Source: an uncultured Actinomycetota bacterium
GTDB taxonomy: Bacteria > Actinomycetota > Actinomycetes > Actinomycetales > CAVURS01
Direction of reading: 5' to 3'
DNA length: 64,000 nt
Assembly (NCBI GenBank): GCA_963834425.1
Contig: CAWIBR010000019.1
Span: forward strand, 56,097-120,096
In this document: positions 43,451 to 57,214 of the stretch, piece by piece
Numbering within the stretch: position 1 is the first letter of the stretch
Layout of the letters: every line of letters starts with the position of its first letter
Notes under the pieces: generated by a model
Seen by the model: the letters and a program-made list of their open reading frames with translations, nothing else
What the model was told of the DNA's origin: nothing
The model's database searches: none
Program-made: the position numbers and the translations under genes

Positions 43451-43508
43451 GACCAGCCGGCCTGAGACCGTCGCCGAGGTGGCTGGCGACTCCATGAGCC
43501 TTGCTCGG

Positions 43509-45044
43509 TTAGTACGGCGGGTCGCCGTTGTCGGGGGGTTTCTCGGTGGCTGGTGCGGGCGGTGTTTGGGGTTCGAGGTAGTGGTGGGGCCTGGAGGTGT
43601 AGGTGTGGCCGGTGCCGGTGGTGTAGGTGAGTTCGCTGTTGGCGTTGCCGGTGACGTGGAGGATGCGGTCGGTTTTGGCTTGGTGGTCGCGTTTGCCGGC
43701 GGCGGCCAGGTTGGCCGGGGTGGTCGGGCCGCCGGTGGCTGGTGCGCGTGTGGTTGTACTCGTGGATGTGGTCGAGTTCGAGGGTGCGGGCGGCGCTGGT
43801 CGGGAAGCGTGAGGTGTGGCCGTCCCGGACGGCGCAGAACTGCGCGATCCGGGGCGCTGGGCGGTAGCCGGTGCTGACCTCGGTGGCGGTGCCGGTGGCG
43901 GGGTCGCACAGGATCCGCCGCCAGGTGGCCTGCTCGGGGTCGTGGGCCAGGGCGCGGGCCAGCTCGGCCGGGATCGGGACGTCGCCGGTGGGGGTGTGCA
44001 GGACCGCGGGGTGGTTGTCCAGGCCGAGCAGGGTGCGGTCGGCGACGGTGACGTTGATCAGGGTGGCCCCGGCCCGGGACCGCAGCCGCGCGACGCTTCT
44101 TGGGGTTCGCCCGGCGGCCGGTCGCGCTGGTCTTGGCTGGTCTTGGCGGTCTGGCTGGTCTTGGGGACCAGGGTGAGGCCGAAGGCGCCGGCGGTGAGGT
44201 GGCCGACGGCGAGGTCGAAGCGGAGCTGGTCCAGGGTTTCGGGGGCGCCGCCGTTGCGGGCGGCGCGGGCTTGGTGGTCCAGGTGGGCGTAGGTGGCGGC
44301 CAGCAGTTCGTCCGGGCCGTGCAGGACCAGGGCGGCGGGCCGGTCGATGGTCCGGGCGTAGTGCGCGACGTGCCGGCCCCGCGGGCGACCTCGGCGGCGG
44401 GTTGGAGGGTGTCGGGGGCCAGGTCGGCCACGGCGGCGGTCAGGATCGGGCGCAGCTGGTGCGCCGGGATCGACCACACAGTGGCGCTGCCGTCGCGGAG
44501 CTCCTTGACCAGGACATCCGCGCCGGCCGGGTCCGGTGGCCGGGTCGGTGACGATCGACTGGACCAGCGGGTCGCCTGGGCCGGGGGAGGCCGGCGGCGT
44601 GGTCGTAGATCACCCCGGCCTGGGCCTCATCGATCCGCCCCGCGCTCAGGGCGTCGGCCAGGTCGGGGTGGGCGTCCAGGCCCAACGCCAGGGCGAGCTT
44701 CTTGTCCGCGGCCCGCAGCGAGATGCCCAGGGCCAGCGACAGCGACAGCGAGGTCGCCTCCAGCGCCCGCTCGTGGGCGAGGTCGCGGTCGCGGGCGCAG
44801 ACCGCTTCGTGGGCGGTCTCGAACTGCTCGACCAACGCCGCGGTCGCCTTCGCCTGCACGGCAGCGGCCCAGGCCTTGACCTTCTCCGCCGCCAGCGCGA
44901 GGTCGAGCAGCTGCCCGCGGGAGGCCTGGGACAGGTCCAGGGTCTCGATCCCGTCGACCCCGACCGCCAGGGCGGCGGCCAGGTCGGACGCCGGCGCCGG
45001 TCAGGTCCGACCCGCTCCCGCTCGAACCCTGGACTGTCGATCAT
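43509..45044 (-). pseudogene. DUF222 / HNH-endonuclease family (13E12-repeat-like) gene, at least 6 frame disruptions, degenerate HNH
   Basis: Reconstructed across three frames: MIDSPGFERERVGPD / PAPASDLAAALAVGVDGIETLDLSQASRGQLLDLALAAEKVKAWAAAVQAKATAALVEQFETAH...IDEAQAGVIYDHAAGLP / GPGDPLVQSIVTDPATG / PAGADVLVKELRDGSATVWSIPAHQLRPIL... / HYARTIDRPAALVLHGPDELLAATYAHLDHQARAARNGG... / ATLINVTVADRTLLGLDNHPAVLHTPTGDVPIPAELARAL...RIAQFCAVRDGHTSRFPTSAARTLELDHIHEYNHTR / PATGGPTTPANLAAAGKRDHQAKTD...DNGDPPY-TAA (stop at 43509-43511). Confidence 0.7.
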
Positions 45045-45051
45045 GTGTACG

Positions 45052-45081
45052 ATTCTATCCGACATGTCCGACAACCGACAA
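45052..45081 (-). promoter_or_regulatory. candidate promoter giving a leaderless transcript of the HNH-family gene
   Basis: On the minus strand: TTGTCG (45076-45081), 18 nt, TAGAAT (45052-45057), 7 nt, ATG (45042-45044). Confidence 0.4.
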
Positions 45082-45230
45082 GGTTTCCCCAGCCCCGAAA
45101 CCCCTTTAGTGCCAACTATTTTCAGCAACCAGACGGTGACCCAGAGCCACGACGCGAAGGCAACCCGCGAGACCAAGGCGCAACCGAGAGCGCAACTCCG
45201 CCGTACCCAGCCGCCTGACCAGCCCTGAAA

Positions 45231-46238
45231 TCAGAACTGCGACGCTCGATCGAGCAGCACCGGGATCAGCCCGGCCACCGACCGGTGGCCCGGTACCGGG
45301 TGTCTGCTCTCCCGCTGCCGCACGCCCTCGAGGACGACGGCGAGCTTGAACGCCCCGAAGGCGATGTACCACTCGAGATCGCTGACGTCGGCGCCGGTCT
45401 GCTCGGCGTACCGGTCGGCCAGGTCCCGGCCGGGTGGGAAGCCGGCGGCGGGACCCATCGCCGTCGACAGTGCGTTGTCGGCCTGGCCGGCCAGGTCCCA
45501 GTAGACGAGGAAGAGACCGAGATCCGCGAGCGGGTCGCCCAGCGTGGCCATCTCCCAGTCGATCACTGCGAGCACCTGCAGGTCGTGATCGACGATCAGA
45601 TTGTCCAGCCGGAAGTCCCCGTGCACCAACGAGATTCGCTGGGTGACGGGCAGCCGCTCGGCCAGCCGTTTCCCGACCGCGTGCAGGCCCTCGCGATGAT
45701 CGCTGTCGGCCGCCCAGACCTCCAGGTGGCGCTGCCAGCGGTCCACCTGACGGCGCAGGTAGCCCTCGGGACGACCTAGGTCGGACAGCCCGGCCCGGTC
45801 GACATCGACCGCGTGGACGGCGGCGAGGGTGTCGACCAGGCGGTCGGCCAGCGCGGCCTTGGCCACTCGGTCGTACGCCGCGATGTCCTCGGTCGTGCGC
45901 AGGACCAGGCCATCGACGTACTGCATCAGATAGAAGCGCGCGCCGATGGCAGCCGGGTCCTCGCAGAGCAAGATGCCTCGCGGGACCGGCACCGACGACC
46001 CCGCCAGCGCGGTGATGATCCGGAACTCGCGGGCCACGTCGTGTGCGGTCGCAGGCTGCTCGCCCAGGGGTGGTCGGCGCAGGACCACCTCGATCTGCGG
46101 ACTCTCCACCAGGAAGGTGAGGTTGGACCGGCCTCCGGTCAGGGCGGTCGCGGTGAGCGGGCCGGAGAGCAATCCGGGGTGCTGCTCGTCGAGCCAGGCC
46201 CGCAGCCCGGACAGGTCCAGGCCAGGGTGCTCGCTCAC
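45231..46238 (-). CDS. aminoglycoside-phosphotransferase-fold (APH/ChoK family) kinase
   Basis: GTG at 46238 (VSEHPGLDLSGLRAWL...). ...GGRSNLTFLV..., catalytic LVHGDFRLDNLIV, and IDWEMATLGDPLADL. The upstream part of track ORF 45231..46511 would overlap the divergent ACAD gene. Confidence 0.8.
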   Translation of the reverse strand: MSEHPGLDLSGLRAWLDEQHPGLLSGPLTATALTGGRSNLTFLVESPQIEVVLRRPPLGEQPATAHDVAREFRIITALAGSSVPVPRGILLCEDPAAIGARFYLMQYVDGLVLRTTEDIAAYDRVAKAALADRLVDTLAAVHAVDVDRAGLSDLGRPEGYLRRQVDRWQRHLEVWAADSDHREGLHAVGKRLAERLPVTQRISLVHGDFRLDNLIVDHDLQVLAVIDWEMATLGDPLADLGLFLVYWDLAGQADNALSTAMGPAAGFPPGRDLADRYAEQTGADVSDLEWYIAFGAFKLAVVLEGVRQRESRHPVPGHRSVAGLIPVLLDRASQF

Positions 46239-46296
46239 GCGACCATCATGTCGCGCGCGCCAGGGCGTTGCCCGTTCGCGCTCAGTAGCATGAACG

Positions 46297-47475
46297 ATGA
46301 GCTTCGACTTCAGCCTCGCGCCCGCCGTCGAGGAGCAGCGACAGCTGATCGCCGACTTCGTCCGTGACCAGGTCATCCCGTTGGAACAGCAGGCGTTCCG
46401 GGACGGCGTCAACGACGACCTGCGTCGCCAACTGCAAGCGGCCGCCCGCGACGCAGGAGTCTGGGCGCCGCAAGTGCCCACGACGTACGGCGGGGGTGGC
46501 TTCAGCTTCACCGACTCGGCGGTGCTGCTGGAGGAGGCCGGCTACAGCCTGCTCGGACCACTGGCGTTGAACTGCTCAGCGCCGGACGAGGGCAACATCG
46601 CGATGCTGCACGAGATTGCGACCGACGGGCAACGTGAGCGCTACCTGCGACCGCTGGCCGAGGGCAGCGTCCGATCGTGCTTCGCGATGACCGAGCCGGC
46701 GCCCGGAGCCGGGTCGGACCCGGCGGCGCTGTCGACGGTCGCTCGGAAGGTCTCCGGCGGATGGGTCATCGACGGGCACAAGCACCTGATCACGGGGGCT
46801 GACGGCGCGGCGTACGCGATTGTCATGGCGCGCAACGGGACTGGTGCGCCCGAGGGAGCGACGATGTTCCTGGTCGACGCCGAGAACCCGGGCTGGCTGG
46901 TCGGCGAGCACCTGCGCACCATCGACGCGTCGACCATCGGCGGCCACTGCGTGGTCGAGCTCCGCGAGCTGTTCGTCGCCGATGACGCCGTCCTGGGAGA
47001 GGTCGGGCGGGGCTTCGCCAACGCACAGGTCCGGCTGGCACCGGCTCGGCTGACTCACTGCATGCGCTGGCTCGGCGCTGCTCGACGGGCGCACGACATC
47101 GCGCTGGGCCGGGCCGTGCGGCGCGATCTCTTCGGCTCGCGGTTGTCCGATCTGGGAATGGCCCAGCAACAGATCGCCGACAACGAGATCGACCTCGCGG
47201 CCGCGCGGGCCCTGCTCTGGCATGCGTGTTGGCAATTGGAGTCCGGCGGTCGGAGCACCGAGGAATCGTCGCGGGCCAAGGTCTTCGTCAGCGAGGCGGT
47301 CGGCCGGATCGTCGACCGGTCGGTGCAGCTGGCCGGCGGTCTGGGCCTGAGCGAGGAGCTCGTCCTGGGCCGGATCTACGCAGACATCCGGGCGTTCCGG
47401 ATTTATGACGGGCCGTCCGAGGTGCACCGGATGTCGATCGCGCGGCGCGCAGCCCGGCGGGCCATTGACTCTTGA
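46297..47475 (+). CDS. acyl-CoA dehydrogenase family protein
   Basis: CFAMTEPAPGAGSDPAAL...GGWVIDGHKHLITGA..., and the C-terminal ...RIYDGPSEVHRMSIAR. Confidence 0.9.
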   Translation: MSFDFSLAPAVEEQRQLIADFVRDQVIPLEQQAFRDGVNDDLRRQLQAAARDAGVWAPQVPTTYGGGGFSFTDSAVLLEEAGYSLLGPLALNCSAPDEGNIAMLHEIATDGQRERYLRPLAEGSVRSCFAMTEPAPGAGSDPAALSTVARKVSGGWVIDGHKHLITGADGAAYAIVMARNGTGAPEGATMFLVDAENPGWLVGEHLRTIDASTIGGHCVVELRELFVADDAVLGEVGRGFANAQVRLAPARLTHCMRWLGAARRAHDIALGRAVRRDLFGSRLSDLGMAQQQIADNEIDLAAARALLWHACWQLESGGRSTEESSRAKVFVSEAVGRIVDRSVQLAGGLGLSEELVLGRIYADIRAFRIYDGPSEVHRMSIARRAARRAIDS

Positions 47476-47499
47476 CATTAGATTATAACTTTGTAGCCT
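47472..47499 (+). promoter_or_regulatory. strong sigma70-type promoter giving a leaderless GntR transcript
   Basis: TTGACA (47472-47477, overlapping the ACAD stop TGA), 16 nt of AT-rich spacer (TTAGATTATAACTTTG), TAGCCT (47494-47499), 6 nt, ATG 47506. Confidence 0.5.
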
Positions 47500-47505
47500 T
47501 CGGGA

Positions 47506-48270
47506 ATGCTGACGGTCCCGGCGGTGCAAGAGCGGCTGGCCGGTGCCGTCCATCGCCATAGTCCGCTGCCGCTGCACCACCAGATCAAAGTCGCTGTGCT
47601 GCAGGGGATCGAGCAAGGTTGGTTGCGACCCGGCGAGCAACTCCCTCGCGAGAGGGAGCTGGCCCAGGCGCTCGGCGTGAGCCTCGCGCCGGTGCGTCAA
47701 GCCATGGTCGATCTCACCAAGGAGGGCTACGTCGACCGGACGCGTGGCAAGGGCACCTTCGTCCGTGAGCGCAAGCTGGTCGAGAAGATTCAGATCCTGG
47801 GCAGCTTCCACGCGTCGATGGAGCGCCAGGGCCTGCGGCCGACCGTCACCGTCCTCACCAACGAGATCCTGCACGCGCCGGAGGAGGTTGCGGCGGCCCT
47901 GTCCATGCGCGGCCGCGAGGCCTGGTGCCTGCGCCGGTTGGCCACGCTGGACGCCGCGCCACTGGCTCTGCTGACCGCCTGGCTGCCGGCCCGGCTGGCC
48001 CGCGGGATGGGCGAGCACGACCTCGGCGCGGGGTCGCTCTACGACGCTCTCGCCGAGGTCCACGGCATCGAGATGACAGCGGCCGACAACCTGGTCGAGG
48101 TCGGGCGGGCCGGCCTCGACGACGCCGACCTGCTCGGGCTCACCCCCGGCTCGCCCCTGCTCCGCGTGGTCGGCATCACCCGGAGCCAGAAGGACAAGCC
48201 AGTGGAGTACTCCGACGTGCTCTACCGACCGGAGCAGTTCCGATTCGCGATCGAGAGCCGCCGCACGTAG
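47506..48270 (+). CDS. GntR-family regulator, HutC/UTRA subfamily
   Basis: LPRERELAQALGVSLAPVRQAMVDLTKEGYVDRTRGKGTFV HTH plus a UTRA effector domain. Confidence 0.85.
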   Translation: MLTVPAVQERLAGAVHRHSPLPLHHQIKVAVLQGIEQGWLRPGEQLPRERELAQALGVSLAPVRQAMVDLTKEGYVDRTRGKGTFVRERKLVEKIQILGSFHASMERQGLRPTVTVLTNEILHAPEEVAAALSMRGREAWCLRRLATLDAAPLALLTAWLPARLARGMGEHDLGAGSLYDALAEVHGIEMTAADNLVEVGRAGLDDADLLGLTPGSPLLRVVGITRSQKDKPVEYSDVLYRPEQFRFAIESRRT

Positions 48271-48333
48271 TCCCCGAACTGACCGACCCGACCCGAACCC
48301 CGGCCCGTCCCCTGCAATGACGCTGGAGGAGAA

Positions 48334-50007
48334 ATGGCAAGCGACGTATCCATGCCGTCGGACTTTGCCGACGGTGGACAGACCTTCGTCCGCAACGCGA
48401 CCGGCCTGGTCCGGGAGGTGTCCAAGTGGGACGCCTTGATCATGAACAGCCTCGGCATGAACGTCGCCCTCGGCGCGGTGTTCCTGCTGCTGCAGGCGCC
48501 CGGCAACTTCCCGGGCGGCAGCATGCTGCTGGCCATCGTCATCGGCACGCTGGTGATGGCCTTCACGCTGCTCTGGGTCTACTCCGAGTTCGCGGCCGCC
48601 ATGCCCCGCTCCGGCGGTGACTACGTGTTCGTCAGCCGGTCGCTGCACCCGGTCGTGGGCTGGCTGCTCTCCTGGAGCCAGGGCATGTGGCTGATCTTCT
48701 TCTGGATCGGCTTCAACGCCTGGTTCGCCCTGACCTTCGCGGTGCCGGTCACCTTCACCACGATCGGCGCGGTCACCGGGCACACCGGCTTCATCAATGC
48801 GAGCAACTCGCTGCTGGCCCAGCACACGGTGCTCGGCATCACCACCCAGTGGTGGGTGATCCTGTTCGGGGCCCTCCTGACCTTCGGCTTCTGCGCCGTA
48901 CTCATCTTCGGCTCGCAGTCCTACTGGCGGCTGCAGAAGTGGCTCTTCGGGCTGGCCGGGCTGAGCCTGGTGATCGTGGCCGGCTTGCTGCTCTTCCGTG
49001 GTGGCCAGATCGAGCAGGCCTGGAACCAGTTCGCCAGCGCCAACAACGGCCTGGAGTACCAGAACATCATCAGCACGGCCAAAGCCTCAGGCTTCGGTGG
49101 CACCAAGGGGTTCAGTCTGACGGCGACGATCCTGATGCTGCCGTGGGTCTTCTTCGTCGTCGGCTACGCCCAGGGCTCGGCCCAGATCGGCGGCGAGGTG
49201 AAGCGGGCCAGCCGCACGCAGTACTTCGCGATGGTCGGCGGCGTCCTGATCAACGGCCTGGTCCTCGGGTTGATCGTGCTGCTCTACCAGCACACGGTCG
49301 GCAACGAGTGGGCCAGCAGCCTGTCGTACCTGAACAACACCGCGCCCGACAAGCTCGGTCTGCCCGGTGGGCTGCCACCGAGCATCGTGCTGATGGGCAG
49401 CATGCTGACCAACAGCGTTCCGATCCTGTTGCTCATCGGCGTCGGCTTCATCCTGTGGGCCTTGATGGGCACGCCGCTGTCGACCCTGCAGGCAACGCGC
49501 TACATGCTGGCCTGGTCGCTGGATCGCACGGTGCCCAAGCAGCTCGGTGAGGTCAACGACAAGTACCACACGCCGGTCAAGGCGATCTTGCTCTGCGGCG
49601 TCACGGGCGTGGTCGCACTCGTCGCGCTGGTCCGCATCCCGCAGGCCAGCCTGCTGGGTGCACTGCTCGCGCAGATCGTCGCGTTCATCGTCGTGAGCAT
49701 CGCGGGGATCGTCTTTCCCTACCGGCTCCCGCAGATCTGGGAGGGCGGCGGCGGCCGGCGGCTGCTCGGCGTACCGGCCATCACCTTGGCCGGCATCGGC
49801 GGCGTCATTGCCCTCGGCGGCCTGATGATCATGTTCATCTTCAACGACACGGTCAACGCGACCTTCGCCGTCACGCGCGGCATCTCGCTGAAGTTCATGA
49901 TCGGGGTCATCGTGGTGGGCGCGATCTGGTACGCCGCGGCCTGGTCGCTCAACAAACGGCGCGGGGTCGACCTCGCCCTCGCCTACCGGGAGATCCCGCC
50001 AGAGTGA
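48334..50007 (+). CDS. APC-superfamily amino acid/amine permease
   Basis: 557 aa with 12-14 hydrophobic segments. ...EFAAAMPRSGGDYVFVSR is typical of APC carriers. RBS GGAGGAG. Confidence 0.85.
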   Translation: MASDVSMPSDFADGGQTFVRNATGLVREVSKWDALIMNSLGMNVALGAVFLLLQAPGNFPGGSMLLAIVIGTLVMAFTLLWVYSEFAAAMPRSGGDYVFVSRSLHPVVGWLLSWSQGMWLIFFWIGFNAWFALTFAVPVTFTTIGAVTGHTGFINASNSLLAQHTVLGITTQWWVILFGALLTFGFCAVLIFGSQSYWRLQKWLFGLAGLSLVIVAGLLLFRGGQIEQAWNQFASANNGLEYQNIISTAKASGFGGTKGFSLTATILMLPWVFFVVGYAQGSAQIGGEVKRASRTQYFAMVGGVLINGLVLGLIVLLYQHTVGNEWASSLSYLNNTAPDKLGLPGGLPPSIVLMGSMLTNSVPILLLIGVGFILWALMGTPLSTLQATRYMLAWSLDRTVPKQLGEVNDKYHTPVKAILLCGVTGVVALVALVRIPQASLLGALLAQIVAFIVVSIAGIVFPYRLPQIWEGGGGRRLLGVPAITLAGIGGVIALGGLMIMFIFNDTVNATFAVTRGISLKFMIGVIVVGAIWYAAAWSLNKRRGVDLALAYREIPPE

Positions 50008-52139
50008 CGGATTCGACGCGCACACCAGCGAAGGGCCACGTCGTCGTCGTCGGGAACCTGACGATCGACGACGTGGTCCTGCCCGATGGCCAGACCCTGA
50101 TGGGTCGCCTCGGGGGCAACACGGTCCACTCCGCTACCGCCGTCCTGGCCTGCGGCGTGCCCGTGGCGATCGTGACCCGCAAGGGCGAGGACTTCCCTGC
50201 GGAGGCTCTCGATGCGTTGGCCGCGGCCGGAGCCGACGTCAGCGGCGTCGTCGCCGTGCCCGGCCCGACCGTGCGGAACTGGGTGATCTACGAGTCGGAC
50301 GGGAGCCGGCACTGGCTCTATCGCACGCCGCCGGCCCGCTCGGCCGAAGTCGCACCAGAGCCGGCCGACATCACCCGAGTCGGCCTCGAGGGAGCCGCGG
50401 TCGTGCATGTGGCGGCCATGCCCTTGGCCAATGCCGAGCGGGTGGTCGCCGAGGTCCGTCGGCTCGCGCCCGGGGCGCTGATCACGCTGGACACCCACGA
50501 GGACTGGGTCGGCTCCGTGCGCGAGCGGTTGCTCGACCTTGCCCGCTCGGTGGACGTCTTCGAGCCGAGCCTGGAGGAGTTGCAGGAGCTCACCCGCACG
50601 CAGACTGCGGCCGATGGCCTGGCGGCCCTGGCCGCCGCCGGATTGACGGGTTGCGTCGTCAAGGCGGGTGCCGACGGCGCCTACCTGCTGGCGGACGGGG
50701 CCATCGTGCACGTCCCGGCACTGGCGACCCGCGCCGTGGATACGACGGGGGCGGGCGATGCCTTCTGTGGTGGTCTGGCCGCTGGTCTGGCCAGCGGACT
50801 CGACCGGCTCGACGCCGTCGCCCTCGGCGTAGCTACCGCCGGCACGGCCGTTGGCGCGTCGGGGAGTTTGCGCCTCCTCGCAACCGAGGTGGACGAGGAG
50901 GGGCTGCGCGCGGCCGGCCGGACTCAGGCGACGCAGTCCCGGCCGCTCGACCCTCCTGGGGCTCTCGGCCCGGCCGCCGTGGTGGAGCGGAGTGCCCCCG
51001 ACCAGGCGAGCGAGTCGAGCGAACCAGACGGCGGGTCGTACGCGATCGACGTCATGCGGCGCGAGATCGCCATGATCCCCGATGTCGTCGCAGCGGCTGT
51101 CGACGATCCCGAAGGGCGGCTGACCTCGGTCGCGAAATCGATGCTGGCTCAAGACATCTCGCACCTGTGGCTGACCGGGTGCGGCGACAGTGCCTTCGCC
51201 GGTCAGGCCGTCGTCCTGGCCTTCCAACGTCACACGGCCGTCACGCCGCACGCCAGCCACGCGCTCGACCTGTCACGCTACGAGGTCCGCTACCTTCCGA
51301 GCGGGAGTGCGGTGCTCGGGGTGTCGTTCTCCGGCCAAGTCGGCCGGACGACCGAAGCGCTTGCTCAAGCCCAGCGGTTCGGGACGCCCACCTACGCCTT
51401 GACCAACGCTCCGACTGCCCAACTGGCCGGCGCGGCCGACGCAGTCATCCCGCTCGAGGTGACCACGCTGGGCTTCTCCCCCGGCACGTCGACCTACGTC
51501 GCGATGGTCGGCAACCTCCTCCGGCTGGCCGGGGCTCTGAGCGAGATCGCCTCCGGTGACGAGGAGTTCATCCGCCGGTTGGCTGCGCTCCCCGAGCAGG
51601 CGGCGCGCACCCTCGAGCTGTGCGCGGAGCCGGCCTTCGTTGCCGCGCAGCGACTTCAGGGCCGCGCCTGGACAACGTTCCTGGGCGCCGGACCCGGTGA
51701 GGCCACGGCCCGGTTCGGCGCGGCCAAGCTGTTCGAAGGGCCGCAGCAGCTCGCCGTCTCGACCAACCTCGAAGAATGGGCCCACGAGGAGTACTTCGTC
51801 ACCCGCGTCGGAGATCCGGTCGTGCTGGTCAACCCCAGTGGTGCCGGCTACGACCGAGGGTTGGAGATCCTGTCCGAGCTCCGGTACATCGGTGCGCAAC
51901 CGATCGTGGTGTCCGACCTGCGCCCTCCGCCTGGCGCTCCCGCCGACGAGCTGTGGCTACCGCTCTGCCCCGGAGTGCCGGAGGAGTTGTCGCCGGTGAC
52001 CGGCGCCCTCCCCTTGGCCCTCATGGGCTTTCACCTGGCCGAGCTGGGCGGCAAGCAGTCCTATAACTTCCCGAACGAAGCCGTCCGAACCGAGCATTAC
52101 GACACCATTCACCGCGCGACGATCGGGGAGCCGGCATGA
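50004..52139 (+). CDS. fusion protein: PfkB-family sugar kinase (N, ~300 aa) + double-SIS sugar-phosphate isomerase/deglycase domain (C, ~370 aa)
   Basis: N-terminal: VVVVGNLTIDDVV...NTVHSA...DTTGAGDAFCGGLAAGL (PfkB signature 2). An acidic linker follows. C-terminal: LWLTGCGDSAFAG...VSFSGQVGRTTEAL...FLGAGPGEATARFGAAKLFE (GlmS/FrlB-type SIS x2). GTGA overlap with the permease. Confidence 0.8.
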   Translation: MTDSTRTPAKGHVVVVGNLTIDDVVLPDGQTLMGRLGGNTVHSATAVLACGVPVAIVTRKGEDFPAEALDALAAAGADVSGVVAVPGPTVRNWVIYESDGSRHWLYRTPPARSAEVAPEPADITRVGLEGAAVVHVAAMPLANAERVVAEVRRLAPGALITLDTHEDWVGSVRERLLDLARSVDVFEPSLEELQELTRTQTAADGLAALAAAGLTGCVVKAGADGAYLLADGAIVHVPALATRAVDTTGAGDAFCGGLAAGLASGLDRLDAVALGVATAGTAVGASGSLRLLATEVDEEGLRAAGRTQATQSRPLDPPGALGPAAVVERSAPDQASESSEPDGGSYAIDVMRREIAMIPDVVAAAVDDPEGRLTSVAKSMLAQDISHLWLTGCGDSAFAGQAVVLAFQRHTAVTPHASHALDLSRYEVRYLPSGSAVLGVSFSGQVGRTTEALAQAQRFGTPTYALTNAPTAQLAGAADAVIPLEVTTLGFSPGTSTYVAMVGNLLRLAGALSEIASGDEEFIRRLAALPEQAARTLELCAEPAFVAAQRLQGRAWTTFLGAGPGEATARFGAAKLFEGPQQLAVSTNLEEWAHEEYFVTRVGDPVVLVNPSGAGYDRGLEILSELRYIGAQPIVVSDLRPPPGAPADELWLPLCPGVPEELSPVTGALPLALMGFHLAELGGKQSYNFPNEAVRTEHYDTIHRATIGEPA

Positions 52140-52918
52140 GTGCGGACAGCGGCCCGCTCGCCGAGGTGGTGCCGGAGGCCCGGCGGATCGTCGACGTGGC
52201 CGCCGCACACCAGCTCACGGCCCGCGTGCTCGGCGGCGCCGGGGTCGCACTACACGATCACCTCGACGTGCCCGAGACCCTCGAGCGCACCTACGGCGAC
52301 ATCGACATCGTCGTACCCGCCAAGTCGACCCGCGCGACCGCAACTGCGCTGGGCGCCCTGGGCTATCTGCCCAACGAGCGGTTCAACGCGCTGCATGGGG
52401 CGCGGCGAATGTTGTTCTACGACACCGCCAACGGACGTCAGCTGGATGTCTTCGTCGGAACCTTCCACATGTGTCACGAGCTGGATCTGGGCAAACGTCT
52501 CGCCGAGCATCCGAGTGCGCTCGACGCCGCCGACCTCTTGCTGACCAAGCTCCAGATCGCGGAGATCAACCGCAAGGACATCGTCGATGGCGTCCGCATC
52601 CTGTTGACCCACGAGGTGGCCGAGGCCCCGAGGCCCGGGCTGGTGGACATCCTGTCGATCCGACGCCTCCGCGAGGTGACGAGCGCCGACTGGGGCTGGT
52701 TCACGACCTTTACCGACAACCTGGCGCTCGTGCGGACAGCGACGCCCGAGCTCCTCGACGACGGGCCGTCCACCCTGGTGCTGAGCCGCATCGACGCCGT
52801 ACAAAGAGCGTTGGCCGAGGCTCCGAAGTCGTTGCGCTGGAAGGCTCGCAGCGTGGTCGGACGTAAGACAGCCTGGTACGAGCTCCCTGAAGAAGTGGAC
52901 CGAGGTGCAGCACGGTGA
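52136..52918 (+). CDS. Pol-beta-superfamily nucleotidyltransferase-fold protein (uncharacterised family)
   Basis: LGGAGVALH...RTYGDIDIVVP (GG...DxD minimal NTase motif) followed by a helical C-terminal region. ATGA overlap with the upstream gene. Confidence 0.55.
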   Translation: MSADSGPLAEVVPEARRIVDVAAAHQLTARVLGGAGVALHDHLDVPETLERTYGDIDIVVPAKSTRATATALGALGYLPNERFNALHGARRMLFYDTANGRQLDVFVGTFHMCHELDLGKRLAEHPSALDAADLLLTKLQIAEINRKDIVDGVRILLTHEVAEAPRPGLVDILSIRRLREVTSADWGWFTTFTDNLALVRTATPELLDDGPSTLVLSRIDAVQRALAEAPKSLRWKARSVVGRKTAWYELPEEVDRGAAR

Positions 52919-53868
52919 AGGATGCCAAGATCTTCTTTGCGACAGACATCCACGGATCGGACCGGTGCCTGCGCAAGTTCCTCAACGCCGGCAAGTTCTA
53001 CGGCGTCGACGCAGTCGTCATGGGCGGTGACATCACCGGCAAGATGATCGTCCCCGTCGTCGAGGAGGCCGGCGGCACCTTCTCGGCCCAGCTGTTCGGG
53101 CGCAAGCGAACGGTGGACGCCGAGGGCCTGGCCGGGCTGCACAAGTTCATTGCCGACGCCGGCTTCTATCCACACGCGATGTCGCCCGAGGAGATGCAGG
53201 CACTGCGCGAGGACCCGACCGCGGTCGATGAGCTCTTCCGCAAGCTGATGAACGAGACGATGAGTCGCTGGATCGACATGGCCGAGGATCGGCTGGCCGG
53301 GACCGGCATCGAGTGCATCTTCGCTCCCGGCAACGACGACCCGTTCTTCATCGACGACCTCTTGTCCAGCAGCGACTCGGTGGTCAATCCCGACGGCCGG
53401 GTCATCGAACTGCCCGGCGGCTACTCGATGATCTCGGTCGGCTACTCCAACCGGACGCCTTGGGCCTCGCCCCGCGAGCTCGACGAGGACGACCTGCGCG
53501 CGGCGATCGACACCGAGGTGGCCAAGCTGCCCGATCCGAGCCGGGCGATCTTCAACTTGCACGTGCCGCCGCACAACACTCCGATCGACCAGGCGATGGA
53601 GCTCGATGCGGACTTCCGCCCCGTGGTCAAGGGTGGCTCGCCGGTGATCACCGGCGTCGGCAGCACTGCGGTGCGGGACGCCATCACCGACTACCAGCCA
53701 ATGCTGAGCCTGCACGGGCACATCCACGAGTCGCGCGGGGAGGCTCGGATCGGTCGCACGCTCGCACTGAACCCCGGCAGCGAGTACAGCGAGGGCGTCC
53801 TGCGCGGCGTCATCGTCAACCTCTCACCTCGAAAGGGACTTCGTGGATACCAGCTCGTCGCCGGTTGA
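52915..53868 (+). CDS. calcineurin-like metallophosphoesterase
   Basis: Motifs in order: ATDIHGS, GGDITGK, PGNDD, NLHVPP, LHGHIHES. GTGA overlap with the upstream gene. Confidence 0.78.
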   Translation: MKDAKIFFATDIHGSDRCLRKFLNAGKFYGVDAVVMGGDITGKMIVPVVEEAGGTFSAQLFGRKRTVDAEGLAGLHKFIADAGFYPHAMSPEEMQALREDPTAVDELFRKLMNETMSRWIDMAEDRLAGTGIECIFAPGNDDPFFIDDLLSSSDSVVNPDGRVIELPGGYSMISVGYSNRTPWASPRELDEDDLRAAIDTEVAKLPDPSRAIFNLHVPPHNTPIDQAMELDADFRPVVKGGSPVITGVGSTAVRDAITDYQPMLSLHGHIHESRGEARIGRTLALNPGSEYSEGVLRGVIVNLSPRKGLRGYQLVAG

Positions 53869-54412
53869 GGTCGCCGTCATCGGGTCGGCGCGGATCGGCC
53901 CGGGGGACGCCCGCCACGACGACGCCGTCCGGCTCGGCGCTGCCTTGGCCGACGCCGGCTGGACCGTCGTGACCGGCGGGTACGGCGGGTTGATGGGCGC
54001 CACCGCATCCGGAGCGGCGTCGCGGGGGGGCCACACAGTCGGCTTGCCGATGCGACCTTGGCAGCACCTGGAGCCAGACGCCCACCACGCCGAACTTCGG
54101 TGGAGCGACGACTATGCCGAACGAATGCGTCACCTGCTGCAGGCCGACGTCGTCGTCGGTCTGCCCGGCGGTGTGGGTACCTTGGCCGAGGCCAGTGGGG
54201 TGTGGGCGGCCGTCCAGACCGAGCCCGGCTCCGCCGGCCTGGTCCTGGTCGGCGACAACTGGGGCCGCCTCGTGGAGGGCTTCGCCCGAGAGCTGGTCAT
54301 CGACCCGGCCGACCTCGCCTTGGCGCATTGCGTCGCGAGCGTGGACGACGTGGTCGCCGTCATCGGCGATCTGCTCGATCATCCCGACCAGCAGCTCTCG
54401 GCCCGCGGGTAG
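53843..54412 (+). CDS. LOG-family (TIGR00730 / lysine-decarboxylase-like) nucleotide N-ribohydrolase-fold protein
   Basis: VAVIGSAR...VVTGGYGGLMGA...LPGGVGTLAEA (PGGxGTxxE). GTG follows GAAAGGGA. 26-nt overlap with the phosphoesterase gene. Confidence 0.8.
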   Translation: MDTSSSPVEVAVIGSARIGPGDARHDDAVRLGAALADAGWTVVTGGYGGLMGATASGAASRGGHTVGLPMRPWQHLEPDAHHAELRWSDDYAERMRHLLQADVVVGLPGGVGTLAEASGVWAAVQTEPGSAGLVLVGDNWGRLVEGFARELVIDPADLALAHCVASVDDVVAVIGDLLDHPDQQLSARG

Positions 54413-54443: not shown

Positions 54444-55331
54444 TCAACTCTGGGCCAACCGACCCAGCTTCCCGGGTGCACGGACGAAGTCGATCCGGTG
54501 CACCCGCTGGTCCACGAAGGTCAACGCCACCACGGTCGTCACGCCCCGCGGGCCGATGAGGGCCAGCCCGGGACCACCGTTGACCGGGACCGGCACCAGC
54601 CGCTCGTCCGGTGCCACGTTGCCCGCGATCCCCAACAGGAATCGCGCGACCCGCTCGGCCCCACGCACCGGGTGACGCGCGGCGTTGACCTCGCCACCAC
54701 CGTCGGACGTCAGCACCACGTCGGGATCCAGGGTCGCGATCAGCGCGTCCAGATCACCGCCGCCCGCTGCCTTCAGGAAGGCGGCCACCGCCTCGGTGTG
54801 CTGCCCCGCGTGGATCTCGACGCGCGGCTCCCGCTCCCGGATGTGACCTCGCGCCCGAGCCGCGAGCTGGCGCACCGCCTGCGGGCTGCGGCCGACGACA
54901 TCGGCCACCTCGGTGAAGGGCAGCCCGAAGACGTCGTGCAGCACCCAGGCCGTCCGCTCGGCGGGTGTCAAGGATTCCAACACCACCAGGAGCGCGAAGC
55001 TCACGGTGTCGTCGAGCGTCACGCGGTCGGCCGGATCACCCTGCGCCGCAGGCAGATTCAGCACTGGCTCCGGCAGCCACGGCCCGACATAGGTCTCTCG
55101 GCGGATGCGAGCCGATCGCAGGGCGTCCAAGGCGGCGCGGGCAACCGCCACTGTCGACCAGGCCTCGACGTCGCGGATCGGCTCGGTCGCATCCGCGGCC
55201 GAGAGTCTCAGCCATGCCTCCGAGACGACGTCTTCGGCCTCAGCCCGGCTGCCCAGGATCGCGTAGGCGACCCGGATCAGGTGCGGCCGGGCCCGCTCGT
55301 AATCTTCGGCCAGATCGTCCAGTCGGGTCAT
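54444..55331 (-). CDS. ECF sigma factor with fused SnoaL-like C-terminal domain (ECF41 / SigJ-like)
   Basis: Region 2 RPHLIRVAYAILGSRAEAEDVVSEAWLRL and region 4 LTPAERTAWVLHDVFGLPFTEVADVVGRSPQAVRQLAARAR, plus a ~100-aa extension. No anti-sigma gene is present. ATGA overlap with the upstream gene. Confidence 0.8.
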   Translation of the reverse strand: MTRLDDLAEDYERARPHLIRVAYAILGSRAEAEDVVSEAWLRLSAADATEPIRDVEAWSTVAVARAALDALRSARIRRETYVGPWLPEPVLNLPAAQGDPADRVTLDDTVSFALLVVLESLTPAERTAWVLHDVFGLPFTEVADVVGRSPQAVRQLAARARGHIREREPRVEIHAGQHTEAVAAFLKAAGGGDLDALIATLDPDVVLTSDGGGEVNAARHPVRGAERVARFLLGIAGNVAPDERLVPVPVNGGPGLALIGPRGVTTVVALTFVDQRVHRIDFVRAPGKLGRLAQS

Positions 55332-56086
55332 GATCCGGCCTGTGCCGCAACGGATCCGGCCAGCCATTGCTCAAAGGTCTGCCGTCCTCGAGGTCCGGGT
55401 TCTGTGGGCAGGAGTGCGCCTGCAGCCATCGCCCGGCCAGCCGCACCGGGCACGCGCAGGGGCAAGACCACGCGCCGTACGCCGCGAGCCCGCAGGACCA
55501 GGCGAACGAGGTCGGGCATCTCGCGAGGCTCCGGACCGGCCAGCTCGGGCGCCCGACCCTGGGGCGGCCCCGTGGCCAGGGCGACCAACGCATCGGCCAC
55601 CTCGACGGCCGCGATCGGCTGGCTGCGCATCCGCGGCACGAGCACCAGCCGGCCCGGACCGCGCCCGATCAGCTGCTCCGCGAACTCGTGGAACTGTGTG
55701 GCCCGCAGGACCGTGACCGGGCCACCGCTGCCGAGGACCGCCTCCTCCTGACGCCGCTTGCCCGCGTAGTAGCCGAGGTCGACCCGGTCGGCGCCCACGA
55801 TCGACAGCACCACGTGATGGGCCACGCCAGCTCGCCGACCGGCCTCGAGCAGCTGCATCGATGCCCTCTCGAAGAACTCGACCGCCACGCGTCGCTTGGT
55901 GGTCGACCGGTTGGTCACGTCGATCACCGAGGCCACGCCGTCGAGCGCCGCATCGAGGCCTTGCCCGGTCGTGACATCGATTCCGTGCGAGCGAGAGAGC
56001 ACCGTCACCTGATGACCCGCAGCCTGCGCTGCGGCGACGACTGGCCGCCCCACCGTGCCTGTGCCCCCTGCTACCGCGATCCTCAT
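55328..56086 (-). CDS. NAD(P)H-binding NmrA/atypical-SDR family protein
   Basis: MRIAVAGGTGTVGRPVV Rossmann motif, 252 aa. Confidence 0.8.
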   Translation of the reverse strand: MRIAVAGGTGTVGRPVVAAAQAAGHQVTVLSRSHGIDVTTGQGLDAALDGVASVIDVTNRSTTKRRVAVEFFERASMQLLEAGRRAGVAHHVVLSIVGADRVDLGYYAGKRRQEEAVLGSGGPVTVLRATQFHEFAEQLIGRGPGRLVLVPRMRSQPIAAVEVADALVALATGPPQGRAPELAGPEPREMPDLVRLVLRARGVRRVVLPLRVPGAAGRAMAAGALLPTEPGPRGRQTFEQWLAGSVAAQAGS

Positions 56087-56470: not shown

Positions 56471-57214
56471 TCAGGACGGACGAACCTCGGCCCAGAGCTG
56501 CTCGTAGCACTGCGCCGCCCGGCTGGTCGGGGCGAAGACGGGCACGGGCGCTCGGTGCTCGGCCATCTGCTCGATGACCGAGAGCGCAGGGATCACCGCG
56601 TCGGCGACCCGGGTATCGGCGTGGTCGCGCGGGATCGCCTCGATCACGTCGCGGTGCAGCCGCTTTCGCCGGTCCGCCATGGAAAAGAAGGCGACCACCG
56701 TGGGGCGCGGTTTCGCCGAGTCGGCCACGAAGCGGGTCAACTGGTCGAACGTCCGCAGCGACAGGGTCGCCGGGATCAGCGGCACGAGCAAGGTGTCAGC
56801 GGCATGCATGACGTTCTCGGAGACCAACGAGATGCTCGGTGGGCAGTCGAGGAAGGCGACGTCGTAGTCGTCAGCCACGCTGTCCAGCAACTGACCCAGC
56901 CGCCGGGTCCGCTTCTTCGTGTCGTCGAGGTCGAGATCCATGTTGCGGTAGCTGAAGTCGGCCGGCAGCAGGTCGAGGTTGGCGAAATCGGTTGCCTTCA
57001 GGGCCAGCTCGATCGGCCGCCGACGGGTCACGAGGGCGTGACCGCCGCCCTTGACGCGGGGGCGCACCCGGAACAGGTACGTCGCAGCCCCCTGTGGGTC
57101 GAGATCCCACAACAAGGTCCGGCGACCTTCGCGGGCGGCGAGGTAGGCCAGGTTCACGGCGGTCGAGGTCTTTCCGACCCCACCCTTGATGTTGTACGTC
57201 GCGAAGACCTTCAC
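56471..57214 (-). CDS. ParA/MinD-family P-loop ATPase (orphan, no ParB)
   Basis: GTG at 57214 follows GGAGG and overlaps the CHAD stop in a GTGA junction. VKVFATYNIKGGVGKTSTAVNLA (deviant Walker A) ...DLDPQGAAT...AFLDCPPS. The upstream 166 aa of track ORF 56471..57715 are shadow sequence. Confidence 0.85.
   Translation of the reverse strand: MKVFATYNIKGGVGKTSTAVNLAYLAAREGRRTLLWDLDPQGAATYLFRVRPRVKGGGHALVTRRRPIELALKATDFANLDLLPADFSYRNMDLDLDDTKKRTRRLGQLLDSVADDYDVAFLDCPPSISLVSENVMHAADTLLVPLIPATLSLRTFDQLTRFVADSAKPRPTVVAFFSMADRRKRLHRDVIEAIPRDHADTRVADAVIPALSVIEQMAEHRAPVPVFAPTSRAAQCYEQLWAEVRPS

Follow-up and report, generated by a model that had tools for sequence, protein, structure and literature searches.

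A widely conserved operon joins a constant permease, metallophosphoesterase, and nucleotidyltransferase to a swappable kinase::SIS and LOG-like cargo

The 64,000-nucleotide stretch of DNA analyzed here (the window) carries a run of six open reading frames (ORFs), all on the forward strand, that encode a GntR-family regulator, a permease, a 711-aa fusion protein, a nucleotidyltransferase (NT), a metallophosphoesterase (MPE), and a LOG-like protein (Table 1). The regulator and permease genes are separated by 63 nt; from the permease gene onward, neighboring genes overlap successively by 4, 4, 4, and 26 nt, with the 4-nt overlaps reading GTGA, ATGA, and GTGA. The LOG-like gene is the last of the unit, and a convergent ECF sigma gene lies 31 nt past it. 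The gene positions and overlaps given in an initial annotation of this DNA agree with the ORFs and with the junctions as read, and its six domain assignments were confirmed by Pfam and profile, AF2, and Foldseek searches.

Table 1. Coordinates of the operon's genes and regulatory elements within the window.
Feature	Position	Strand	Description or basis
Operon promoter	47472..47499	+	Sequence read; layout kept in related loci
Candidate GntR/HutC operator	47480..47492	.	AT-rich palindrome in promoter spacer
gntR	47506..48270	+	GntR-family, HutC subfamily; wHTH + UTRA effector domain
APC-superfamily permease, 557 aa	48334..50007	+	AA_permease_2 79.8 bits
PfkB::double-SIS fusion, 711 aa	50004..52139	+	Profile searches, catalytic-residue alignment
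NT, minimal Pol-beta-fold, 260 aa	52136..52918	+	AF2 model, Foldseek, conserved residues
MPE, calcineurin-like, 317 aa	52915..53868	+	Metallophos 22.7 bits vs cut-off 21.5
LOG/SLOG-cluster-4 protein, 189 aa	53843..54412	+	SLOG cluster4 63.4 bits

The promoter consists of a -35 element, TTGACA (47472-47477), a 16-nt spacer, and a -10 element, TAGCCT (47494-47499), with the gntR ATG 7 nt downstream. The same layout (TTGACA, 16 nt, TAnnnT, 6-7 nt, start codon) is kept in at least 12 related loci, including L001, L002, L005-L009, L013, and L016-L018; for this reason a leaderless gntR mRNA is well supported by sequence comparison, and the leaderless consensus promoter proposed earlier stands. A generic sigma-70 scan did not detect the operon promoter. 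The -35 element also contains the stop codon (47473-47475) of the ACAD gene upstream. Within the spacer lies AGATTATAACTTT, an imperfect palindrome around GTTATAAC/ATTATAAC that occurs once in the window; an AT-rich element of this kind is kept 5' of gntR in about 30 loci from three phyla, and locus L007 carries a perfectly palindromic version, AAAGTTATAACTTT. This palindrome is the probable GntR/HutC operator. The regulator matches the Pfam GntR (5.8e-19) and UTRA (7.4e-33) families, and its gene is present in 30 loci. We read 47472-54412 as a putative single transcription unit that would be substrate inducible and autoregulated by its GntR/HutC protein, with the operator inside the promoter spacer.

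The permease gene is preceded by a ribosome-binding site, GGAGGAG (48325-48331), and its product has about 12-13 hydrophobic segments. A comparison with the PDB returned no homologue at E<=0.01, and the protein belongs to a distinct subfamily of the APC superfamily. The fusion protein begins with a PfkB sugar kinase (approximately residues 13-288; PfkB 112.6 bits; DTTGAGD at 246-252), followed by a Pro/Ser/Ala-rich linker (approximately 296-345) and a double-SIS part (approximately 350-684) with S396, S441, S443, K575, E578, and H594. The latter is predicted to be a phosphosugar(-amine) isomerase or deglycase of the GlmS/FrlB type; a GlmS-type alignment covers both SIS halves (residues 339-684), and the sequence is nearer to the GlmS isomerase domain than to FrlB. 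Glu578 and His594 are 16 residues apart, as are the catalytic Glu and His of FrlB and GlmS (PMC10285752). Catalytic residues of kinase and SIS are invariant in 27 homologues; in loci L030, L033, L034, L037, L046, and L057, the two are encoded by separate genes.

The NT scores 28.5 bits against PF14907, below the cut-off of 31.2 bits; its Pol-beta nucleotidyltransferase fold is confirmed by an AF2 model (pLDDT 83.7) together with Foldseek. The catalytic residues are kept (GG33-34, D55xD57, D104), and the family numbers 543 representatives at E<=1e-30. Its nearest folds are small-molecule nucleotidyltransferases for cationic aminosugar drugs and MenT toxins; the best Foldseek match, the MenT1 toxin, is weak (E 2e-4, TM 0.38). 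Of the module's proteins, the MPE is conserved best, and 133 of 146 loci have it. It carries a cap insertion (approximately residues 44-130) and metal motifs D11xH13, GD39, GN140DD, H216, and GH267xH269; the five motifs reported earlier are thus all conserved and four are canonical, but motif III reads GNDD instead of GNH[DE]. Its nearest structural matches are aq_1956 (2yvt) and TT1561 (1uf3), with Foldseek E values of 6e-8 to 2e-6; GpdQ-type glycerophosphodiesterases are also among the matches, and LpxH and Ap4A hydrolases such as SapH match weakly. By sequence, no solved structure matches the MPE at E below 0.04. Searches for characterized close relatives of NT and MPE, including a literature search on both, returned none. 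The LOG-like protein, which also matches Lysine_decarbox (46.9 bits), carries GGYGG (45-49) and PGGVGTLAE (108-116).

The six genes are a real and widely conserved operon. About 40 independent genomes, from Actinomycetota, Chloroflexota, Dormibacterota, and one alphaproteobacterial MAG, carry the cassette in the same gene order. Its genes are therefore not neighbors by chance, a possibility that the initial annotation had raised. Two independent neighborhood surveys, seeded with NT and with MPE, separate a constant from a variable part. Among NT-seeded loci at >=85% coverage, 59 of 64 contain MPE and 51 of 64 the permease, the gaps falling mostly at contig ends; among MPE-seeded loci with at least 4 kb of flank, the permease is present in 18 of 19, NT in 16, kinase/SIS in 4, and LOG in 3. 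The constant unit is permease, MPE, and NT; kinase::SIS and LOG are one swappable cargo set. The LOG-like gene occurs in 25 loci and is missing from Chloroflexota cassettes with the same cargo, so it is dispensable even there. NT is missing from a few otherwise complete cassettes (L067-69, L139, L141) and from a Thermomicrobium megaplasmid locus; as cassettes without NT keep MPE, the latter does not strictly depend on an NT product. The NT/MPE/LOG trio is not variable in syntenic cassettes generally, with the exceptions of LOG in Chloroflexota and NT in these few.

In bacteria and archaea, permease, MPE, and NT recur beside many nitrogen-compound pathways. Other cargo sets comprise BtpA/FGGY/SDR and choline-kinase/Fe-ADH/ALDH/dimethylglycine-DH-like genes; further cargo includes creatininase, creatinase-like, ADI/DDAH-like, arginase-family, CN-hydrolase, formamidase, deacetylase, class-III aminotransferase, allantoinase-like, hydantoin racemase, and allantoicase genes. 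These point to the catabolism of choline, creatinine, guanidino compounds, ureides, amides, and amino-polyols. Because permease, MPE, and NT are constant and kinase::SIS and LOG are variable, the locus is not a fructoselysine (frl) operon that picked up hitch-hiking genes, and an extended nucleoside route does not describe it fully. The earlier suggestion of a nucleotide module hitch-hiking on a metabolic operon reverses the roles, in that the frl-like genes are the part that varies. A literature search found no described pathway with this gene combination, in agreement with the initial annotation, which knew of none.

A short motif links two members of the constant unit. The permease ends in Y-R-E-I-P-P-E-COOH (encoded at 49984-50004), an instance of the tail [YF]-x-E-[ILV]-P-x-[ED]-COOH that is kept in permeases down to 25% identity, and the same motif stands in the same register in the C-tail of NT, which ends W-Y-E-L-P-E-E (encoded at 52874-52894). 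The NT tail is basic and aromatic and is kept across phyla, yet it is modeled as disordered. The pattern [WYF]xE[ILV]Px[ED] occurs within the last 20 residues of 82 of 110 permeases and 39 of 76 NTs, versus a single occurrence in 298,214 residues of 935 other neighboring proteins. Since the permease tail has either Tyr or Phe at its aromatic position, there is no conserved nucleotidylation site there, and a search of the permease found no other conserved cytoplasmic hydroxyl residue. Median identity is 31% for the permease, 44% for MPE, and 46% for NT, and the permease diverges with the cargo; membrane proteins' generally faster divergence could partly account for the higher conservation of MPE and NT.

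We favor a two-module reading, to which we give an even chance: a core of permease-docked NT and MPE, plus a cargo that cleaves sugar-nitrogen C-N bonds. The first module, which is found from Actinomycetota to Archaea, comprises a tail-bearing permease, a catalytically intact MPE, and usually a tail-bearing, intact NT; the second, at this locus, is the PfkB kinase::GlmS/FrlB-type double-SIS and a LOG-like phosphoribohydrolase. The permease may import a small sugar-nitrogen conjugate, cationic or zwitterionic, with a glycosylamine, a riboside, or the corresponding Amadori compound (ketosamine) as candidates; the nitrogen moiety handled by sister cassettes is probably a ureide. The kinase would phosphorylate the terminal hydroxyl of the sugar, and the C-N bond would be cut by SIS (ketosamine form) and/or LOG (N-glycosyl form), yielding sugar phosphate and the free nitrogen compound. 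NT and MPE would stand outside this chemistry as permease-associated partners, probably docked via the motif common to the permease and NT tails, MPE serving as the hub, and at the transporter they would carry out one unvarying nucleotide or phosphoester reaction. In the version we prefer, uptake would be gated by, or coupled to, a nucleotidyl "write/erase" cycle: NT would add an NMP to the incoming compound, its phosphate, or a protein of the complex, and MPE would remove it. The nearest folds of NT and the action of PsmN, described below, are leads toward this reading. The NT and MPE genes are interspersed with the catabolic genes and translationally coupled to them, an arrangement that fits pathway enzymes at least equally and to that extent speaks against write/erase.

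NT and then MPE could instead act on the imported compound itself, a rather unlikely alternative that nonetheless draws on several observations. NT would make an NMP- or NDP-conjugate, often after the kinase, trapping or activating the compound as in Leloir-, Kennedy-, or NadR-type logic; cargo enzymes would process the conjugate, MPE would strip the nucleotide, and LOG, NT5C, or PRTase would recycle the NMP. Besides the interleaving and coupling, about half of the long loci encode, beside the triad, a kinase of one of three folds (PfkB, FGGY, and choline/APH-type), and PsmN, apparently of this "uncharacterised nucleotidyltransferase" class and its only studied member, acts after a kinase and decorates the phosphate that the kinase installed (PMC6993621). 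In fold, NT is similar to ANT(2'') and LnuA, whose substrates are cationic aminosugars; the weak MPE matches include LpxH, which hydrolyzes a nucleotide-diphosphate conjugate, and the Ap4A hydrolase SapH; and nucleotide-salvage cargo occurs occasionally (LOG in 25 loci; an NT::PRTase fusion plus NT5C in L061). However, many loci have no kinase (Halobellus, Alicyclobacillus, Dictyobacter), MPE is kept in cassettes without NT, a single enzyme pair, conserved at about 45% identity, would have to take acceptors as chemically different as choline, creatinine, ureides, and sugars, and a plain add-then-remove cycle would be energetically futile unless coupled to transport.

The tight pairing of MPE with the permease (18/19), which persists without NT, would also suit import of phosphorylated or phosphodiester cationic nitrogen compounds, such as phosphocholine, glycerophospho-amines, phosphagens, or aminosugar phosphates, that a docked MPE hydrolyzes and the cargo catabolizes, with NT optional. 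The extra acid in GNDD motif III could accommodate a positively charged leaving group or head group, and the GpdQ-type matches, the choline-type cargo (Fe-ADH, ALDH, dimethylglycine-DH-like) in L117/L130/L137 and Halobellus, and FGGY polyol kinases, which would suit a glycerol or polyol moiety, point the same way. Yet we consider this improbable: phosphoesters are not known substrates of APC permeases; same-operon kinases would restore the phosphate that MPE takes off; NT, which about 80% of loci keep with its catalytic residues intact, is left unexplained; the regulators are of substrate type (GntR, DeoR, LacI, IclR); and no phosphate-starvation-linked genes were seen in the annotated neighborhoods.

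The main reading of the initial annotation, an extended frl-like Amadori or nucleoside salvage route in which five enzymes act serially on one compound, now appears very improbable. The frl parts list is matched at superfamily level, the SIS Glu/His pair is intact, the genes are tightly coupled in a block kept in about 40 genomes, and kinase plus LOG may parallel phosphorylate-then-cleave riboside routes; against this, NT and MPE recur beside cargo without kinase, SIS, or LOG, some cassettes have no LOG and some no NT, and both Frl orthology and FrlC are absent. Finally, a selfish or defensive NT/MPE pair (for instance an anti-phage system, or a toxin of the MenT kind whose antidote is the phosphoesterase) stabilizing mobile catabolic islands is extremely improbable, even though MenT1 weakly tops the NT Foldseek list, the cassette has clearly been transferred between phyla, and SLOG proteins are known from conflict systems, since the pair sits among, and is translationally coupled with, catabolic genes that substrate-type repressors control, and is linked specifically to one permease subfamily that shares the NT tail motif, and a PADLOC defense search returned nothing significant.

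Under the two-module reading, the cargo compares best with E. coli frlABCDR and the Salmonella fra (fructose-asparagine) system, which likewise combine a GntR/HutC-type repressor, an amino-acid-type permease, a PfkB kinase, and a double-SIS protein, and whose logic of import, phosphorylation, and C-N cleavage would be matched. The parallel drawn earlier holds for superfamilies and architecture but not for orthology: identity is 28% to FrlR over the full length, 26% between kinase and FrlD, and 21% to FrlB over one SIS half, and the permease aligns with FrlA in short local patches only. Kinase and SIS are fused here, FrlC epimerase is absent, and neither frl nor fra has anything corresponding to NT, MPE, or LOG. 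Type II LOGs (5zi9, 1wek; cytokinin riboside 5'-monophosphate phosphoribohydrolases) are full-length homologues of the LOG-like protein (approximately 2e-17) and share its PGGxGTxxE and GGxGxMG-type motifs; the LOG-like gene is an optional cassette member, and its product falls below the NCBIfam TIGR00730 and CtkRMPhLog cut-offs, with SLOG cluster 4 as its best Pfam match. PsmN of the PsmK/PsmN pair (pseudomycoidin lasso-peptide cluster) is a small ANT(2'')-like nucleotidyltransferase of an uncharacterised class acting downstream of a kinase (PMC6993621); it modifies a peptide in a RiPP biosynthetic cluster, whereas the NT studied here belongs to catabolic operons with permease and MPE and scores below the PF14907 cut-off. 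The Metallophos_3-type proteins aq_1956 and TT1561, themselves of unknown function, share the calcineurin-like core of MPE at about 14% identity, but are 60-90 residues shorter and have no cap insertion.

For the constant unit, the closest likeness may be GlnD/GlnE-PII-AmtB, in which nucleotidyl transfer and removal regulate a nitrogen-compound transporter. Here too, a Pol-beta nucleotidyltransferase and a phosphohydrolase are gene-linked to nitrogen-compound uptake in bacteria and archaea, an analogy that is purely inferential. Unlike that system, the operon has no PII protein; in place of an HD domain or second nucleotidyltransferase domain, it has a calcineurin-like MPE as hydrolase, and NT and MPE are two separate small proteins.

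Comparison of sequences and gene neighborhoods firmly supports a reading of the six-gene operon at 47472-54412 in which a widespread permease, phosphoesterase, and nucleotidyltransferase module carries one of its many cargo sets. This inverts the logic of the initial annotation, which described an operon resembling the frl system with three unexplained downstream genes; the observation of the operon was confirmed, and its interpretation stands in part. We refer to the tail-bearing APC permease, the calcineurin-like metallophosphoesterase (MPE), and the Pol-beta-fold nucleotidyltransferase (NT) as the core, and to the swappable genes beside it as cargo. In this window, the cargo consists of a fusion of a PfkB kinase to a double-SIS enzyme (kinase::SIS) and a LOG/SLOG-cluster-4 protein (LOG). 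This modular architecture has firm support; the mechanisms considered below for NT and MPE are proposals.

The ORF listing reproduced the six annotated gene positions exactly. So did the sequence for the successive overlaps, three of 4 nt (GTGA, ATGA, and GTGA) and a last one of 26 nt, and profile searches upheld every domain assignment. The gap between gntR and the permease gene spans 63 nt and contains a GGAGGAG ribosome-binding site. The leaderless consensus promoter proposed for gntR holds as well: in an alignment of about 30 related loci, the same layout recurs upstream of gntR, namely TTGACA, a 16-nt spacer, TAnnnT, and 6-7 nt before the start codon. The spacer carries a conserved AT-rich palindrome, AGATTATAACTTT in the window and a perfect AAAGTTATAACTTT in L007, one of the loci compared; variants are present in Streptosporangiaceae and Chloroflexota, and it occurs once in the 64-kb window, whose G+C content of about 70% makes an actinobacterial origin probable. 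One autoregulated six-gene unit would be the simplest reading of these features. TATAAC was considered as the -10 element of a promoter with a leader, and was dropped after the comparative alignment of gntR upstream regions. A generic promoter and terminator scan returned nothing useful and missed the gntR promoter.

Features of the operon and its flanks, with window positions
Feature	Position	Strand or orientation	Assignment or remark
ORF-dense region	42899-45230	both strands	many long overlapping ORFs, Pro/Arg-rich translations
DUF222 fragment	44440-44859	-	within the ORF-dense region
APH-family phosphotransferase	45231-46253	-, divergent from acyl-CoA dehydrogenase	PF01636, 2e-46
Acyl-CoA dehydrogenase (ACAD)	46297-47475	+	directly upstream of operon; stop codon (47473-47475) inside the -35 hexamer
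-35 element	47472-47477		TTGACA
-10 element	47494-47499		TAGCCT
gntR	47506-48270	co-directional with the other five ORFs	ATG at 47506; GntR+UTRA domains (profile search)
Permease	48334-50007		AA_permease_2, 79.8 bits (Pfam)
711-aa protein (kinase::SIS)	50004-52139		PfkB + GlmS-type double SIS (profile searches)
260-aa protein (NT)	52136-52918		Pol-beta nucleotidyltransferase
317-aa protein (MPE)	52915-53868		calcineurin-like metallophosphoesterase
189-aa protein (LOG)	53843-54412		LOG/SLOG-cluster-4
ECF sigma factor	54444-55367	-, convergent on LOG	SnoaL-like C-terminal extension (SigJ-like)
ParA/MipZ-like ATPase	56471-57130	-	Arg/Pro/Gly-rich N-terminal extension of listed ORF reaches 57715, overlapping next gene
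CHAD-domain protein	57211-58725	-	504 aa; adjoins ParA/MipZ-like ATPase

On the upstream side, the APH and ACAD pair resembles the kinase and ACAD arrangement of ACAD10/11-type enzymes, and the ORF-dense region beyond the pair is perhaps the remnant of a REP13E12/HNH-type element, or else a plain high-GC artefact. On the downstream side, no terminator-like hairpin was detected in the 31 nt between the stop codons of LOG and the ECF sigma factor gene.

An alignment of NT homologues was used to fetch 64 genomic loci, against which each window protein was then run by tblastn. The order GntR, permease, kinase::SIS, NT, MPE, LOG is collinear in about 40 of them. Uncultured Actinomycetota and Nocardioides-like MAGs are the nearest relatives; carriers of the collinear cassette include Nocardioides-like MAGs, isolates of Planotetraspora, Microbispora, Sphaerisporangium, and Nonomuraea, Dormibacterota, a Limnocylindrales MAG, and an alphaproteobacterial MAG, as well as Chloroflexota, where LOG is missing. 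The initial annotation had allowed that the downstream trio might be a chance neighbor; because NT, MPE, and LOG are not absent or variable across these roughly 40 syntenic loci, their adjacency is meaningful rather than fortuitous. In three phyla, co-directional genes for an allantoinase-like amidohydrolase, an Asp/Glu/hydantoin racemase, an allantoicase, an HbpS/GlcG-like protein, and DUF1989 lie downstream of the kinase::SIS cassette (loci L017, L019, L021-L029, L026, L031, L035, and L075). The position of the amidohydrolase, racemase, and allantoicase genes 3' of cassettes with the same cargo hints at a ureide as the nitrogen moiety of the compound on which kinase::SIS acts. This set is absent from the window, where the operon ends at LOG.

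In about 20 further NT-seeded loci, NT and MPE are retained together with an APC permease of about 550 aa (only about 30% identical), and kinase::SIS and LOG are missing. A wide range of other genes takes their place; what these share is a link to small cationic or zwitterionic nitrogen compounds, at times joined to a sugar or polyol. To counter the seeding bias, metagenome contigs were scanned with an alignment of diverse MPEs, and counts were taken from loci where flanking sequence extended 4 kb or more to each side of the MPE. Among these 19 loci, the permease is present in 18, NT in 16, and both in 15, with kinase/SIS in 4 and LOG in 3. Clustering of 1,256 neighboring ORFs from 146 loci placed MPE in 133 loci, permease in 102, NT in 75, kinase::SIS in 40, GntR in 30, and LOG in 25.

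Cargo sets found beside the core
Lineage or type	Genes	Source
Thermogemmatispora, Ktedonobacteraceae	BtpA + FGGY kinase + SDR under LacI or DeoR	Pfam
	arginase-family + BtpA	Pfam
Alicyclobacillus	Zn-ADH + D-Ser-dehydratase-like + CN-hydrolase	Pfam
Dictyobacter	PLP enzyme + enolase-superfamily enzyme	Pfam
Bathyarchaeota	aminotransferase + class II aldolase	Pfam
Micrarchaeota MAG (L061)	enolase, NT5C-type 5'-nucleotidase, NT::PRTase fusion	Pfam
Halobellus limi	IclR, Fe-ADH, ALDH, MPE, NT, permease	annotated replicon
Thermomicrobium roseum	permease, MPE, double CN-hydrolase, no NT	annotated replicon
Choline-type	choline/ethanolamine kinase, Fe-ADH, ALDH, dimethylglycine-dehydrogenase-like protein	Pfam
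	creatininase; creatinase-like M24 peptidase; ADI/DDAH-like protein	Pfam
	PF04199 cyclase; formamidase; polysaccharide deacetylase	Pfam
	class-III aminotransferases; luciferase-like monooxygenases	Pfam

Several loci merit separate mention. The Micrarchaeota locus is a nucleotide-metabolism flavored version of the module: there, a 572-aa protein (9917-11635 of that locus) combines NT with a phosphoribosyltransferase domain, next to MPE, the permease, and the other cargo. On the Thermomicrobium roseum megaplasmid (L065), a classical MNT/HEPN nucleotidyltransferase pair, with no relation to the module's NT family, lies at 12323-13058 of the locus, 2.4 kb downstream of the permease, MPE, and CN-hydrolase genes. 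In loci L081, L101, L113, L118, L044, and L078, two or three tail-bearing permeases occur, and some of these loci also have two adjacent MPE/NT pairs; the module may thus have been duplicated locally and then diversified. A search of plasmids found the module only on the Halobellus limi and Thermomicrobium roseum replicons, and none of the opine-type plasmids carried it.

The permease belongs to the APC superfamily; it has 13 hydrophobic peaks, reaches no named NCBIfam subfamily, and has no homologue in a PDB sequence search. Signatures at its N-terminus and in TM2-3 are conserved (F18/R20/G24/L25 and P91-R-x-GG-x-Y97). Even at 25-30% identity, the permeases of the set end in [YF]-[RKQ]-E-[ILV]-P-[PVI]-[ED]-COOH. 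The C-terminal tail of NT is basic and aromatic, conserved, and disordered in the AF2 model, and it closes with W-Y-[ED]-L-P-[ED]-E, a motif in register with that of the permease. The pattern [WYF]xE[ILV]Px[ED] falls within the last 20 residues of 82 of 110 permeases and 39 of 76 NTs; it occurs once in the 298,214 residues of 935 other neighboring proteins. The tail aromatic of the permease alternates between Tyr and Phe and is therefore not a conserved modification site, and no conserved cytoplasmic Tyr, Ser, or Thr that could serve as one was found in the permease beyond generic APC signatures. Variants of the motif in NT and permease showed no clear pattern of co-variation between loci. We read the shared tail as a possible common docking motif. 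MPE would be its likely hub, given that its pairing with the permease persists in loci that have no NT.

Nothing characterized is close to NT or MPE. Across 61 NT sequences, archaeal ones included, conservation of G33 G34, D55 D57, and D104 is 95% or higher, and the predicted structure (AF2, pLDDT 83.7) matches NTase folds. Against PF14907 (NTP_transf_5), NT scores 28.5 bits for a cut-off of 31.2, matching profile positions 59-146 only; many of its homologues carry a precomputed PF14907 hit, and no NCBIfam model matches NT. Looking up contigs by the exact sequences of the window NT and of P0001 yielded no match. Foldseek matches in the PDB are weak (MenT1, ANT(2'')-Ia, LnuA, CCA-adding enzymes, and FKRP), and a PDB sequence search gave no meaningful match, only a weak local one to Enhancer of rudimentary. 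The family comprises 543 representatives at E<=1e-30 and 50% clustering, almost all stand-alone and about 250 aa long; fusions are rare among them. Two putative fusions, both possibly gene-call artefacts, are P0420 (369 aa; a PP2C_2 phosphatase domain with an N-terminally truncated NT) and P0477 (507 aa; NT with a GntR-FCD regulator). A third candidate, a kinase::SIS::NT fusion in P0511 (a 955-aa cluster member), was rejected as a frameshift-ridden call.

MPE just passes the Pfam Metallophos cut-off (22.7 versus 21.5), and structure comparison supports the calcineurin-like fold. The claim that it holds all five metal motifs needs one amendment: the motifs are present, but motif III is a variant, GN140-D-D, with Asp where His is usual, rather than GNH[DE]. 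The metal ligands are all kept in 60 sequences (D11xH13, GD39, H216, and GH267xH269 invariant). Its conservation is extreme: among its best 120 database matches, nearly all have a length of 317 aa and an identity of 76% or more. Its best structural matches are proteins of unassigned function, and Foldseek places it in the PDB at superfamily level only. PADLOC defense models gave no significant assignment; the only matches were local and generic, of MPE to PDC-S10 over 40 residues and of LOG to PsyrA at E 1.4e-3. Literature searches returned no description of the triad or of BtpA-type cargo, in keeping with the initial remark that no described pathway with this combination was known.

What do NT and MPE do? 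We narrowly prefer a model in which they form a write/erase nucleotidylation pair that would dock at the permease and gate or couple uptake. In its favor are the constancy of NT and MPE while the cargo varies, the tail motif that permease and NT share, and the tie to nitrogen compounds. Across cargo types, median identity to the window is 31% for the permease versus 44% for MPE and 46% for NT, a steeper divergence that fits a permease whose substrate changes and an MPE and NT that keep a constant one. NT-less cassettes, the lack of an identified target, and an enzyme-like placement in the operon nevertheless count against nucleotidylation at the permease. A less preferred proposal is that NT and MPE act on the substrate itself, in a nucleotide-handle or trapping pathway. 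Kinases of three folds are frequent in the cargo, NT and MPE genes are interleaved with cargo genes, NMP-salvage genes appear now and then, and there is a precedent in PsmN, the only studied "uncharacterised NTase" found, which acts after a kinase and decorates the phosphate (PMC6993621); loci without a kinase and the great diversity of acceptors speak against it. Also less preferred is import of phosphoesters with hydrolysis by MPE on entry, which would suit the tight permease and MPE pairing (the tightest of all), the GNDD variant, and the choline-type cargo, but sits poorly with the kinases and leaves NT unexplained.

On the preferred reading of a docked nucleotidylation pair, permease, MPE, and NT might form a physical complex through the aromatic-x-E-[ILV]-P-x-[ED] motif, in a new pan-prokaryotic coupling or gating of uptake by a nucleotidyl write/erase cycle; we hold this full version to be less likely than not. 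On similar odds, the core might represent a transporter accessory system of a categorically new class, one that plugs into dozens of catabolic pathways. The module spans soil Actinomycetota, Chloroflexota, Dormibacterota, Bacillota, Thermomicrobium, and several archaeal lineages, and goes along with the catabolism of nitrogen compounds that matter in the environment: choline, creatinine, guanidino compounds, ureides, amides, amino sugars, and polyols. Whichever mechanism proves true, be it regulation of the transporter through nucleotidylation, catabolism by way of a nucleotide handle, or vectorial hydrolysis of phosphoesters, prokaryotic nutrient uptake would gain a new principle, and thousands of entries now named "hypothetical protein" or "Icc-related phosphoesterase" could receive an annotation. 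The module lends itself to simple, cheap experiments, since both enzymes are conserved with their active sites intact and a short tail motif is common to a transporter and a soluble enzyme.

In direct comparison with the E. coli Frl proteins, the parallel to the frl and fra systems holds at the level of superfamilies rather than orthologues. FrlA, to which the permease aligns in short patches only (E 2e-5), is without the tail motif, and the window has no FrlC homologue. The kinase scores 38 bits against the NCBIfam fructoselysine 6-kinase model, whose cut-off is 247, with tagatose kinase and ribokinase models scoring higher; the kinase half is nearest ribokinases, and the SIS part is nearer GlmS and NagB-II. 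LOG carries its family motifs (PGGxGTxxE and a GGGxGxMG-type motif) and exceeds the Pfam cut-offs of LDcluster4 and Lysine_decarbox; type II LOGs are nearest to it, and it falls below the NCBIfam cut-offs of TIGR00730 (71 versus 96) and the cytokinin-LOG equivalog (53 versus 300). The SIS half retains phosphate-binding S396, S441, and S443, plus K575. Its E578 and H594 lie 16 residues apart, as in FrlB and FraB, and are invariant in 27 homologues; this Glu-His spacing is a signature of FrlB, FraB, and GlmS (PMC10285752), and since GlmS and NagB-II share it, it cannot tell whether the enzyme is a deglycase, a deaminase, or an isomerase. The parts agree with the general idea first proposed, phosphorylation before cleavage, and support its wider reading only partly: a kinase followed by SIS (as a ketosamine-phosphate deglycase) or LOG (as a phosphoribosyl N-glycosidase) would fit a route that phosphorylates a glycosylamine or Amadori-type conjugate and then splits its C-N bond. 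The kinase has the PfkB fold with an invariant DTTGAGD, yet its identity to FrlD is only 26% (E 4e-7). The regulator has the GntR and UTRA domains of a GntR/HutC-family repressor and shares 28% identity with FrlR over 242 aa (E 3e-28).
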